Notes under the pieces: generated by a model
Databases searched by the model: none
Told to the model about the DNA's origin: nothing
Seen by the model: only the letters and a program-made list of their open reading frames with translations
Part shown: positions 6,974 to 59,422 of the stretch, piece after piece
How positions within the stretch are numbered: position 1 is the first letter of the stretch
How the letters are laid out: each line of letters begins with the position of its first letter
Made by a program: the position numbers and the translations under genes
NCBI GenBank assembly: GCA_964016885.1
Contig: OZ024741.1
Coordinates: 380,184,001 to 380,248,000 of the forward strand
Reading direction: 5' to 3'
Length of the DNA stretch: 64,000 nt
Source: Eledone cirrhosa
Lineage: Eukaryota

Positions 6974-7442
6974 GGTAAATTTCTTTAAGTCGTTTGGAAG
7001 CCTCGACAATGCAGATGGGTAAATGTCCGGGTAACAACATCCGGTGGTGGAGAGAGAGATGTAAGTGGGTGTACGTTGAGATGCGTGGCATGTATAAGAC
7101 TGCAACGTGCAGAGGAATGAATGAATGAGCGTAAAGGATAAAAATAAAAATAACAACACGAGAAAGAGTTACCTCGGGAGAGATTTAATTGTCCCTATAT
7201 ATTTCGGATTCACATCCATCAACTGGGGTTTGTTTCCGGAGGGGGGGGGGTTGTCTGTCGGAAAGGTGCGAAACAGTCTTATACACGCCACGCATCTCAA
7301 CGTACACCCACTTACACTCTCTCTCCACCACCGGATCTTGTTACCCGGAGATTTACCTATCTGCATTGTCGAGGCTTCCAAACGACTTAAAGAAATTTAC
7401 CTTATTATTCCACAATGCTTCAAGCAAACTTCAATACTCTCC
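6974..7442. repeat. Element with ~128-bp inverted arms between (TA)n tracts
   Basis: 6974-7102 is the reverse complement of 7274-7401 with few mismatches. Confidence 0.85.
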
Positions 7443-7589
7443 TATATATATAATACTATTTATAGTTATGTATATAGTATAAACAACTATAAACAGAAAG
7501 GTCAGTAATTTCTTAATAACCTTATTACCAGTAAGAGAAATAGCTCAGTGTCTGAACATCAGTTGTTTTACAGAGCAGTTAAATCAATA

Positions 7590-8345
7590 AATTACAGAAT
7601 TATCAAAGTTGTGTTCAAATGATTTAATAGCTGACAATCGTTTCTTCCAAATGCTCGGTTGGATTCATCGGAATATTATCAATGTTTGCACATATATTTA
7701 GCCTCCTATTCAACTGAACAATAATATAGATACATATAAATTAATGCTCTGAGCAACAGTTTCGTATTTATAGGATGGAATGGATGTGACATATATTTTA
7801 CGAGAATTGTACAATAATTGTACAAATATTCAAATTAAAATTCAAATTCAAATTAAATTAAAATCAAAAGCACGGAGTGGAATACATGCAACAGTTAAAA
7901 CACGGGAACAGTCCAAATATTAAAAAGGCATTGAGGAAGCAGTTTTGAGAAAGGAAGAGTGCGATAAAAATTCATTTGCAAGCGTGTGGATAGTGTGACT
8001 GCGTAAGTCATATACATGAGAAGGAGACAAGCAAAGCTATTATGCACATATAGATGAATAAATACTGCAGTTAAAGCAAATATGTTAATGTATTAGAGTC
8101 TATGGTGGATGTTGGATGTTGATGGTGTTCGAATTTATGTGTGTTGAGAAACATCCAGTTTTTGCAGACTTTTCCATGACATATGTTGATATAAACTTTA
8201 GTTGGTTTTTATATTGAGTGTTTTAAGTTAGTTATATGTGGAAACATTGATACTGGTCCGATGATCCCAAACTAGAATTTGGAAGAAACGATTGTCAGCT
8301 ATTAAATGATTTGAACACAACTTTGATAATTGTATAATTTAATGA
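7590..8345. mobile_element. PLE-like non-coding element with inverted ends, each carrying a CCGATGA hammerhead-like motif
   Basis: 7598-7652 is inverted at 8278-8330; motif CCGATGA-(T)CCAA..TTGGAA-GAAA-CGATTG-TC at ~7630-7675 (-) and ~8255-8300 (+); 7590-8080 homologous to 56060-56490 in reverse. Confidence 0.65.
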
Positions 8346-8856
8346 TATATATATATATATATATATATATATATATATATATATATATATATATATATAT
8401 ATATATAAATACGGCTCCTGAATTGTAGAGCTAACTCTGTTGAAAGGACTTGACTGCTGTTTCTAGTTGTCGATAACCCTATTCACGCCACTGGGACGAA
8501 GCTGGTATGATGTGTGTATTTTTAGCAGATACACCACGTGTTACTGGCCAGTCACTGATTTGAACTTAATGCGTAAACACAGATGGCTGGACTTCTTCCT
8601 TGTTGAAAATCCAAGTATCGGTCTCCGTGGTTTACCATTCGATTAATTGGTGGTGGAATATATTTCTTTAATGGAATATATACAGGGAAGATTAATGATA
8701 ATATAAGGTATCTACTTTTGAAGTTCTAGTTAACTTTATTTAGTTACCTACCTAGCTATGTGTGCTTACACACTTGTAAAAATGATCCCTTGTGATTGTT
8801 TCATATGTTTATTTATATGTTAATCAATTTCTAGTTGTTATATATATATATATATG

Positions 8857-9240
8857 CTAGCCGACTTACCCGCCCCTTGGTGCGTTTCACACGTTTCTTT
8901 GTAGGAAATTATGATTGATTTTAAATCAGTGATATAATTTATGGAGACAAACTTCATTAGGGTGTCTTAATATTATTGACATTTGCTTAAATTGTGTGAA
9001 TAGGCATCATTTCTTGTCATTTACATATGGTTTAAATGTCATACAAATCGAAGGAAAACATTTTCAGCGGGGGCTATTGTCCCTGGGAACCCTTTGATTA
9101 AAATGAAATATGCTTATCCAAGTACCCTGGGCAATCTAGTTTCAGAATATATATGGTTATGATGGTCTATCTCCAATACCATAGGAGGAGTTCGTGAACA
9201 AACAAACAAACAGACAGGAACTACAACTTTATATATATAC
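8857..9240 (-). mobile_element. Non-autonomous Helitron-like element
   Basis: Minus strand starts TATATATAAAGTTG and ends in a GC-rich segment plus GGCTAG; related inverted partial copies at 9286-9670. Confidence 0.55.
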
Positions 9241-11329
9241 TTGTTACAACATATATTGTTCCATTTATTGGCCAAACCGATCGGAAATTGTTTTCCCTTT
9301 GATTTATATGAAATTTAAACGATAGGTAAATGAGAAGATATGATGCCTATTCACAATGTTTCAGCAAATTTCAATAATAGTAAAATACCATAGAGAAAGT
9401 TTTGGCCAATAAATGGAACAAGATTTCACGAACTCCTCCTATGGTTTTGTAGATAGACCCCATAACCATATATATTCTGAAACTACATTTCCCAGGGTAC
9501 TTGGGTAAGTATATTTCATTTTAATCAAAGGGTTCTCCGGGGGCACAAAACCCACGCTGAAAACCCCCACTAAAATTGTTTTCCCTTCGAATTATATGAA
9601 ATTTAAACCATAGGTAAACGAAAAGATATGATGCCTATTCACAAACTTTCAGCAGATTTCAATAATCTATTCATCTTCTAAATCTCATGTTACCTTTTGA
9701 TGAAGGATTTGTGCCCTGATCTTATGACATTTCCCTACTCTATCAAGCGTTAAACAAATATATTTCATCACTGTACTGTGTCATTTGCTTAGTTATTTCT
9801 GTTTAGTTTTGCATATATGTATATATGTGTCGAAAACATCTATTGAGTTATACTTTATCTGCCGAATATAGATATCTACATTCTGTTTATGTAGACTGAG
9901 TAGTTAAACTTCTGTCTATGGGCTTTTAATAGTTACAGTTTACTCCAAAGTTTTGTCAGCTTCTCAAAATAGTATATATGAGATGATATATATATATATA
10001 TATATATGTAAAAGGTAAACAGAAATAACAACACAATCGGTGCCGACACAGTAAATTGGAAAAGGTGATGCCACCACAAGAAGCACCAGGTCAATATTGT
10101 AAAGTGGTCATGTTGGTGACACAAAGGTTGTTGTTATGGTGACACACAACAGAAAGCATCCTGTTCACAGTGTCAATTGGTCATGTTGGTGCCGACAAAA
10201 AGTGCACAGCCAACACTATAAAATGGTCGTTTGGTGTCATGATAAAAGCATCAGGTTCATGCTGTAAATTTGGTTGGTATTAGGAAGAGCAACAAGCAAT
10301 GGAAACTGAGCCAGATATAGTTCTGTATCAGCAAGTCATGGTCAGCTAATTGGACTTGTCTCACAACAGGACAACTCATCTAACTCATGCTAGTATGGAA
10401 AATATGTCAAATCGTGATGATATATGTGTGTGTGCGTGTATAACGGTAACTCTGTTTTTGTCAGATTCAGAAAACTCAATATATACATAATACATATATT
10501 TTCAGACAAATTAATAAACTAAAAGAGATCATTCATTTGGCATGAACACCTTTCAATCTACATGTTTCTAGTCAAAAAAAATATATTGTTCAGATTCCTA
10601 GATATACACATTTCTAATCAATAATTTTAACAGAAATACAATAAAACCATTGAATACCAAACTGTTTGAAACCATTCTATTTCTGTGATGCAAAGCTGTT
10701 TATTTAAAAGTGTTCTTATTTACCTAGAAAAACTTCCATCATAATTGTATGTAATAACCTTTGTTAAGCTACTTTCTAAACAATAGCTGAATAATGAGAC
10801 AATTAGTTATATTACGAAATCCTCCAAAGCTTTTATTTTTTCAAACTTATTCGAAAATCAGATTAAGTGTCTTTCATTTGAAATATGGTAACAAAAGTGT
10901 AAAAACTTTGTATTCTACTACACACAATTTTACACATAGAATAGTATCTTCAAGCACAGTCAAATTAAAACACAATCATCCAAGCAATGTGAGTTACTTA
11001 CAGAATTGCAAATGCAATGATAGTAGCCTATGTGCCCCCCCCCCCACCCCCCAGAACAATGTCTAATTAAAGAATTGGTATAAAGAATACTGAGAATACT
11101 GATTCATGTTCTTCAACTCTAAACTGTTTTAACAAAACTTTCTACCAACATAAATTTGTAATTCAAACATAACACTAGAAAGTCTATTATCATTATATTG
11201 TGGAATTAAGATATTAACTGTGTTTATGTTAACTTTATTAGAATTACATTTGGCTAAATGGGACAGCTAGTTGTTGGGTTGTTACTCAAGATGCTTTCAC
11301 AACCAATTGTCACCACTAGTCTCTATTTT

Positions 11330-57840: not shown

Positions 57841-57885
57841 GCTCTGAAGAACTCTACGGTTACGTAAGGAAGAAACATTGTAAGC
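57841..57885 (+). ncRNA. Minimal hammerhead motif
   Basis: GCT-CTGAAGA-weak stem II-GAAA-CATTG-TA-AGC. Confidence 0.6.
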
Positions 57886-58023
57886 CAATAAAAAAAAAAT
57901 GTTTGATGTTGTAGACGCTCTTCTGTTCTTTATCATATATATATATATATTTATATATATATATATATATATTACTATATATATATATATATATATATAA
58001 TGGATAAAAATCAATACAATATA

Positions 58024-58101
58024 ATTACCTCATTACCAGAGGTTTCCCGAATGAGGCGAATACGAAATAAACGACTTCATTCGTTCGTCAGACGAGGCAA
58101 T
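58024..58101 (-). ncRNA. Type I hammerhead ribozyme
   Basis: ATTGCCTCGT-CTGACGA-ACGAATGA..TCATTCGG-GAAA-CC TCT GG-TA-ATGAGGTAAT; 10-bp stem I with G-U pairs. Confidence 0.82.
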
Positions 58102-59211
58102 ATAAAACATGGGCAAATACTTATAAAAACACATCAAGAAAATCAAAAAAAGATATAGATAAATGAAATAGAAATTGAAATATATAAAAATCTATCAAGA
58201 AATATAGTTACGTGTGTGTATATGTATGTATATACGCTCCCAGATGTGCATATATGTATATGTGTACATGTACATGTATAGTGAGAAAGTGTGCGTAATT
58301 CTAAAATAGAGCAAATGTATCTATATGTCTGTATTATACAAACAGAAATGGTTACATCGTAAATATACGAATATGAAGGCGCGCGCATAAAACGCCTGGA
58401 CACTCGTACGCTTAGGTGCGGAAAGAAAGGAGGTAAGGGAGTGTAATAATTAAAAGAAAAGGGTCAGTCTCGATATATTTATAAAAATATAATAACGATA
58501 AATTAGAAAGAAAAAATTAAAGAAAACAAAAAAAAGAGGGGTATATACATACACAGACACGCGTGTCTCACAAAAGAAATGTAAAAATAATTATACTTAT
58601 ATAAACACGCGCACTTACACTTCCATACGTTCGATACGTACATACACACACACACACACACATACCTATACTCACGCATATAAACCTGTTTACATGCCCA
58701 CGTATGAAACTGAGTAAGTAAAAAAAGGGTAAGGGGGGGGGGAGAAGAAAAAAGGAACAAAACATAAAACCGAGATGTCAAAAACACGGATATAAAGACA
58801 CGTACACATACGCATAATATATACATACACACACACACAAACACCTGTACACACACACACACATACACATACACACACACATATACATACACACACATAC
58901 ACACACGCACGCGCGCGCACATACGTAGTCACTCATGTACATATATAAAAAGTATACACACATTAAGGCGTTCAGCCATATTGAAATGTGGATAAATAAG
59001 TACAAATATAAAATTGTAAGATAGGCTGCGCAAAAATAAAATAAAAATGAAAATATCTGGATTGAAAAACACAAAAGACAAGTGTAATCAGTTCGTGGAG
59101 GAAAAAGGGAAGTAAAAGAAGGGGAAGTAAAAAATAGAAAATAGGAAGTGGATCGGAGAATAAAGGGGTGGGGAATGTGAAGTAAAAATAAATAAAAGTG
59201 AAAATAAATGA

Positions 59212-59422
59212 AATTATTGACAAGGATAAAAATGAAAGTAAGTCAGAAAGGGTAATTAAAAAGAGAATAATAAGAGTTTATGGAGGATAAGTATCTGAAA
59301 GTGTGTTAAGTTTATATGAGCTGGAAAGCAGGTGTGATTTCATGTGTGGGCAACTGGTGAAAATTTCCGTCTTTTTAATTACCCTTTCTGACTTACTTTC
59401 ATTTTTATCCTTGTCAATAATT
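59212..59422. repeat. Perfect ~53-bp inverted repeat abutting the truncated Helitron
   Basis: 59212-59264 is the reverse complement of 59370-59422. Confidence 0.9.

Follow-up and report, generated by a model that had tools for sequence, protein, structure and literature searches.

In a 64-kb stretch of the Eledone cirrhosa genome (positions 380,184,001–380,248,000 of contig OZ024741.1, assembly GCA_964016885.1; this whole stretch is called the window, and positions are counted from its first nucleotide), most local inverted duplications are probably single insertions of Penelope-like elements (PLEs). Two arms of one element family, one with a short 3′ end (S) and one with a tailed 3′ end (T), lie head-to-head in a (TA)n tract, and the pair would be made by cutting both target strands and reverse-transcribing one RNA from both ends. 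The window has a GC content of 34%; most of it is made up of (TA)n tracts and pieces of retroelements, with Helitron Rep/PIF1 sequence at its right end.

A preliminary description of the window had listed 11 inverted duplications and attributed them all to a nascent strand that switches strands at TA, copies back and re-anneals. Masked self-BLAST and arm-by-arm alignment recovered all 11 spans at exact or close coordinates, some arm alignments extending a few bases into TA. Gap-free arm identity was 100% at 59212–59422, 99% at 39836–40985, 98% at 42799–45768, 97% at 47929–48450 and 50230–52428, 96% at 6974–7401 and 28985–29755, 93% at 14640–14895, 91% at 26853–27135, 88% at 7598–8330 and 82% at 26085–26595. 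Eight of the spans are head-to-head PLE copies (six family-confirmed, two probable; Table 1), an arrangement known as the inverted pseudo-long terminal repeat (pLTR); the remaining three are two TA-centred fold-backs and one 54-nt snap-back without TA at its junction. One listed duplication, 14640–14895, proved to be two insertions of one family merged.

The link to TA was defined by an identity of at least 85%, a spacer of at most 2 kb, and an outer end within 15 nt of a tract of at least four TA units or a TA centre. It was found in 12 of 17 inverted repeats in the window, against 1.5 under random placement (maximum 6, 300 trials). The reported association with TA therefore stands, but usually for one outer end only: in most cases the opposite end continues through a 35–140-nt element tail up to the next TA, and 59212–59422 has no TA tract within 1.2 kb. 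Hammerhead-like cores, described as part of tails adjoining the arms, sit within the arms instead (regular-expression matches at 14607, 41196, 42988, 45579, 50315 and 52344; a further match at 11702 is likely due to chance). The core motif occurs in families F0, F3 and F7 by the same search, and the F3 copy has a predicted type I-like fold, with a z of only −1.3 and without an Rfam match; the Rfam scan returned no hammerhead, only sub-threshold microRNA-like hairpins.

The same TA link was found in 59 evenly spaced 10-kb stretches of the assembly (39 from the four largest contigs), where 61 of 94 inverted repeats had an outer end at TA (null 5.9, maximum 13). The enrichment thus extends genome-wide, and the pattern is not special to the window. 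Inverted-repeat density at an identity of at least 90% was 86 per 590 kb in this sample and 15 per 64 kb in the window. Among the 61 TA-ended repeats, 40 had their other end 30–110 nt from TA (null 1.8), and 7 of the 94 were TA-centred; the 73 events left after de-duplication comprised 34 with one end at TA plus a tail, 15 other TA-ended, 6 TA-centred and 18 without TA. The TA-ended arms formed 15 repeat clusters with at least two members and 28 singletons, with tail lengths fixed per family. Counts of local inverted and direct pairs were uninformative (48 vs 62; within 200 nt, 28 vs 23; 49 of the 59 loci, 10 tandem-rich ones being dropped). Because the random-placement null takes no account of elements that end at TA by inserting there, we turned to a family-level analysis.

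Top-scoring copies of five families (F0, F2, F3, F6 and F7) gave 136 loci after removal of window loci and duplicate views (fetched loci carry L numbers below). Each family has two precise 3′ ends, S and T, which lie 40–105 nt apart, both directly on (TA)n, and solo copies end at S or at T, again directly on TA; a sixth family, F9, likewise has two fixed 3′ ends. Predicted reverse transcriptase (RT) or GIY-YIG-type frames tie F0, F3, F6, F7 and F9 to PLEs: in F3, a weak RVT_1 match that falls short of the Pfam cut-off (E 0.001) and a visually identified GIY-YIG-type motif; RT and endonuclease (EN) in one frame in F9 (L253), EN frames in F6 (a GIY-YIG frame in copy L215) and F7, and a tblastn match for F0. 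Pfam gave no GIY-YIG match, and F2 had no open reading frame (ORF) within 700 nt. Translations of F7 and F9 carry a Cys-rich linker before GIY-YIG, as in the Neptune clade, and both families may be Neptune-type. Full-length F9 copies start with a pLTR (L323, L348). Four near full-length young copies of this type, ~3.7 kb with a 5′ pLTR (L323, L348, L349, L350), suggest recent F9 activity.

The two ends combine in inverted pairs by a strict rule, one S and one T per pair. The test, whether one arm can be a copied-back subset of the other, was fixed before the new loci were read, and F9 was fetched after the prediction. Among the 136 loci, 56 had an adjacent inverted partner, and 45 pairs had both outer ends resolved; the remaining 80 were solo copies, extended past the end of the locus or the reference, or could not be resolved (as in 20/27 F7 loci). 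The 45 pairs comprised 13 with a long T and a short S arm, 16 with a long S and a short T arm, 14 S+T pairs of equal length, two T/T and no S/S (Fisher p = 7e-8 on 35 pairs of the four families with a tail-free query, F0 being left out). In F9, read by eye, all 19 pairs resolved in 35 loci were S+T (long S in 12, long T in 6, equal in 1; binomial p = 4e-6), with L326 and L333 left unassigned. Across the six families, 62 of 64 resolved pairs were S+T and none was S/S. The tail sat on the shorter arm only in 28 of the 64 pairs, 25 of them clear; with none on the longer arm, the shorter arm can be no DNA copy-back of it. As controls, RTE copies, which share the TA target, formed head-to-head self pairs in 0/24 cases (29 loci, 5 off the edge), and SINE-like copies had an inverted partner in 2/28. 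Head-to-head inner junctions lacked TA.

Allele patterns indicate that both arms come from one source sequence, be it a single RNA or two from the same locus, which such comparison does not separate. In 16 F9 pairs, 17 alleles were exclusive to the two arms (0.3 in shuffled pairs), discordant subfamily alleles numbered 2 (79 shuffled), and all 16 pairs had arms closer to each other than the family median. In the older families, the trend was the same but weaker: both arms carried the minor allele in 24 cases vs 9.5 after shuffling.

The arrangement itself is known. In EN-containing (EN+) PLEs, the pLTR includes an inverted 5′-truncated copy at the 5′ end, the tail is often at one end only, (TA)n is a preferred target and hammerhead-like motifs occur in the pLTR (PMC3846280; PMC8557442). 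The pairs described here agree in the first three respects and, in F0, F3 and F7, contain hammerhead-like core motifs. They go beyond published accounts in the count behind the tail rule, in the greater length of now one arm, now the other, and in the template common to both arms; the tails of 40–105 nt compare with 30–40 nt in published EN+ PLEs. The mechanism behind inverted pLTRs has been called open (PMC3846280; PMC8557442), and so has their origin, together with that of one-sided tails, in PLEs as the sister group of telomerase (PMC8557442).

One source, TA-anchored 3′ ends and different fixed starts make two target-primed reverse transcriptions the simplest account. A fairly likely mechanism is double-ended target priming, in which a PLE dimer would cut both strands of (TA)n and copy one RNA from two fixed, staggered starts, one per strand, so that the inverted pLTR and the one-sided tail would be explained in a single step. 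The supposedly dimeric protein would position its pair of active sites over both RNA start sites, and the symmetric TA target would supply an identical primer on both strands. Two target-primed reverse transcriptions, one per strand, would then proceed on one RNA or on two RNAs of one locus; the two cDNAs would extend toward each other until synthesis stopped, either at a random point or on reaching the RNA 5′ end, and short homology would join their ends. We infer all these enzymatic steps; priming from both target strands would follow from the S/T geometry and from TA at both outer ends. The self-complementarity of TA matters, but likely by supplying the same primer on both strands; in the majority class the tract is the insertion target, not a strand-switch site as had been proposed. 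Equal-armed pairs have recurring 5′ stops (F2 about −159, F3 −251, F6 −335), which would fit both cDNAs running off the same RNA end. Such family-specific stops recur at F2, F3, F6 and F0 loci and possibly mark the start of a short pLTR transcript; the hammerhead cut site was rejected as their cause, for in F3 the stop precedes the hammerhead-like motif by ~100 nt.

L1 twin priming is comparable: a single RNA is copied from primers on both target strands, and the cDNAs join through microhomology, which produces an inversion. There the second primer lands upstream and inverts without duplicating the 3′ end, whereas here both fixed starts are 3′-terminal and the 3′ end is duplicated. The protein of the anole Poseidon element cleaves both strands of AT-rich targets and extends them, is a predicted dimer and starts reverse transcription at two sites that bound the tail (PMC11167929), the same layout of start sites and tail as in our families. 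That these two starts are coupled across opposite strands of a single target is our reading and not that study's, which does not discuss inverted copies and uses "inverted" once, for a blocking dT.

The main rival, which we regard as unlikely, is a self-primed, endonuclease-trimmed intermediate: self-priming on an (antisense) transcript would yield an off-chromosome palindrome, an endonuclease would trim one end at S, and the unit would be integrated into (TA)n. Shared alleles would result, and trimming at either end would give both length classes, but the unit would have to enter the chromosome through strand transfer of finished DNA by a GIY-YIG nickase, which is not known to have such an activity. 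Self-priming is a published proposal (PMC3846280), and resolution of the tail by an endonuclease has been suggested (PMC8557442); against them stand the solo copies ending at either S or T on TA and the agreement of the tail with two RT start sites in vitro (PMC11167929).

Copy-back as originally described, or an R2-like snap-back of first-strand cDNA, is improbable as an account of all pairs. Since a copy can hold nothing that its template lacks, the 25 clear pairs with a tail on the shorter arm only speak against it; it also predicts many T/T and S/S pairs, where 2 and 0 of 64 were observed. The long-S/short-T class refutes it as the main mechanism, unless those tails are later additions. 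Nor are the majority arms drawn from whatever lies nearby, as had been supposed; they are PLE 3′ ends that end at two family-fixed points. In its favour, internal S ends carry 1–8 nt of TA-like sequence, a possible stop point, and comparable products have been described at R2 snap-back junctions (PMC11371274) and as fold-back insertions at yeast breaks (PMC11724301); a minority class, treated below, fits it.

It is very improbable that the arms are independent insertions into the same TA tract or stem from RNAs of different loci: tail-to-tail pairs exist (L095, L142; window 14503–14821), but head-to-head inner junctions are free of TA, the S/T rule would not follow, and private alleles are common to both arms. 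Assembly or library chimeras at long TA hairpins are hardly credible either, for although identical arms occur in a handful of TA-centred cases (L060, L090, L108, L151), which may be of this kind, and the read evidence comes from three runs of one sample and one study, possibly the source, most arms differ by 0.5–18%, copying errors cannot give the S/T rule or one-arm tails, and a 74-nt contig of single-copy depth (16.5; run X1) spans the centre of 47929–48450 at 48189; because of the arm divergence and the S/T rule, the main class is not chimeric.

Several observations weigh against double-ended priming of PLEs as the general explanation. Two T/T pairs (L018, L131) break the rule, and among the 28 long-S/short-T pairs the arms of L030 and L040 differ by less than 20 nt, while the short arm of L324 is tail only. 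A 61-nt tandem repeat that interrupted the reference alignment cost the F7 loci mentioned above, the loci lean young because they are the top-scoring matches of each search, and the F0 query contained the tail. Inner-junction overlap is noisy, with 0–5 nt in 12 of 25 measured junctions and apparent inserts in 13. The arms of older families are discordant at 21 sites (41 shuffled), and gene conversion could yield the shared alleles, though not the tail. The assembly yielded no second haplotype of this region and hence no empty site. Finally, the supporting biochemistry comes from an anole Poseidon element, and F7 and F9 at least look Neptune-type.

A minority class follows another route. In 39836–40985, 47929–48450 and 59370–59423 the copy is a subset of its template, and these fit the originally described mechanism, R2 snap-back or fold-back at breaks; the TA fold-back accounts for the first two and for 6 of the 73 sample events, not for the majority. 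Among 228 loci outside the window, about 10 of 16 TA-centred inverted repeats were judged local fold-backs. Host repair may act here at a broken end, where the target 3′ end would form a hairpin, often in TA, copy its own strand and rejoin TA or cDNA; alternatively, the cDNA would snap back on itself. The 54-nt copy at 59370 has its counterpart in R2 snap-back junctions (PMC11371274). The target fold-backs at 47929 and 39836 resemble fold-back insertions at breaks (PMC11724301), but arms in this class reach 260–700 nt and are often TA-centred, compared with mostly 5–34 nt in yeast.

At 39836–40985, a ~240-nt TA tract forms the centre of the duplicated flank, and the copy leads back to TA at 40985–41011. 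Its arms agree at 570/575 sites (5 differences), and the neighbouring SINE-like and PLE copies are 97–98% identical to their nearest copies; the arms are thus younger than these elements and probably not coupled to them. At 47929–48450, an RTE 5′ end is folded back at (TA)6 with 7 differences between arms, and the divergence of 2.7%, set beside 2.6% (4/151) between the F2 tail and its nearest copy and 4% for the RTE, weakly suggests coupling to the PLE insertion. A 146-nt X1 contig starting at 48448 has 27 unplaced letters, not enough to be counted as a bridge over 48450, and three restriction-site-associated DNA sequencing (RAD-seq) runs of other samples gave no coverage of the 47929–48600 locus. 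Flank fold-backs were flagged at 2/136 PLE loci (L016, L146), of which only L016 is firm because the L146 arms are elsewhere treated as family sequence. Fold-backs also occur at 2–3 of 24 RTE 5′ junctions (L263 TA-centred; L287 and probably L265 not), which points to host repair and not to a PLE-specific process. L354 (= L258) holds an internal snap-back like 59370–59423.

Table 1. Inverted duplications and associated features of the window (S, short 3′ end; T, tailed 3′ end)
Positions	Strand	Feature	Ends and TA tracts	Anatomy
6974–7442	+	PLE family F6 head-to-head pair	S at TA 6949–6973; T at TA 7443	Inverted arm 6974–7102; forward arm to 7401, tail to 7442
7453–8344		Older pair (88%), probably S+T (presumed); family without ORF tie	Right arm ends at TA 8345	Left arm continues ~130 nt to TA 7443–7452
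14503–14708		Separate S-ended F0 copy	Opposite side of TA 14709–14759
14760–14994	+	PLE family F0 pair	S at TA 14709–14759; T at TA 14995
25953–26608		Old pair (82%), probably S+T (presumed)	No TA-adjacent homologue ends found
26814–27134	−	Repeat cluster 5 pair	S at TA 27135	Left tail ends at (AG)n/(TA)n
28904–29752	−	Pair with partial direct tandem copy	S at TA 29753; T at TA 28871–28899	Tandem copy 29435–29557
39836–40985		TA-centred fold-back		Composite arms: RTE fragment, short TA, SINE-like copy
42799–45824	+	PLE family F3	S at TA; T at 45824	Inverted arm 42799–43924; forward RT + GIY-YIG body 43925–45768, tail to 45824
45572–45622		Type I hammerhead-like fold in F3 copy
47929–48600		TA-centred fold-back of RTE 5′ end		261-nt arms; joins S-ended F2 tail 48448–48600 via shared AAA
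50127–52428	+	PLE family F7	S at 52428	Longer forward arm stops at S; nested deletion
58000–59423	−	Young PLE F9, probably Neptune-type	S at TA 57976–57999	5′-truncated at 59369
59370–59423		54-nt identical internal snap-back copy in F9	No TA at junction

The cluster 5 pair has its anatomy repeated in L059, L081 and L113, and 28904–29752 shows the textbook inverted-plus-direct pLTR layout (compared with L054 and L116). The inner junction of the F3 copy overlaps by ~11 nt. In the F7 copy, the GIY-YIG C-terminus lies at 51160–51390, the spacer and right arm together forming the endonuclease C-terminus on the + strand; the tail is on the shorter inverted arm (50127–51099), which places this copy in the long-S/short-T class that copy-back cannot make.

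Further features accompany these. Near-identical F0 pairs at 14760–14994 and 16640–16874 (a 91% direct repeat) surround an RTE fragment (15150–16619) and represent independent insertions or a local duplication, and an inverted F0 pair elsewhere (L042:1438–1450) carries a few telomere-like CCCTAA units where its arms meet. An abundant element of ~200 nt (17757–17955, 25881–25936, 26616–26670), which forms cluster 1 (e.g., L083:5775–5889, L114:2011–2130), has a near-fixed 55–60-nt hairpin and an 80-nt tail between TA tracts and looks like a non-autonomous PLE derivative mimicking a miniature inverted-repeat transposable element (MITE). Inverted arms of ~540 nt (91%, AC/AT-rich) flank an RT fragment (54076–54700) at 53121–55775 and end ~80 nt from TA. 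Nested inverted and direct repeats at 8949–9666 (83–91%) have no TA anchor and no homologue among the fetched loci. At 16929–17270, head-to-head RTE-type 3′ ends, ~90% alike and both with (ATC)n tails on TA, probably belong to two subfamilies. Helitron Rep/PIF1 frames occupy 59537–63070, interrupted on the left by the F9 insertion, and a diverged relative lies on the − strand at ~3300–4600.

While the inverted pLTR structure is established, the strict S+T rule with a common template, and the idea following from it that inverted pLTRs originate by priming on both strands, were not found in the literature searched, whose coverage left out subscription papers and supplements; the available portions of bioRxiv 10.64898/2026.07.22.740005 and PMC13282606 do not address inverted-pair formation. 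The S+T rule can be counted in any PLE-rich genome and predicts, for the in vitro system already published, that the two strands of one duplex would give products with different start sites. Head-to-head PLE units look like MITEs, which concerns repeat annotation. With double-ended priming, the 3-Gb genome is fairly likely filled with hairpins at a density of roughly one per 10 kb (extrapolated, as a rough estimate, from 49 TA-ended events per 590 kb); so heavy a burden of long hairpins could matter for RNA editing or silencing if transcribed. If true, the same mechanism would explain the long-puzzling inverted copies of PLEs.

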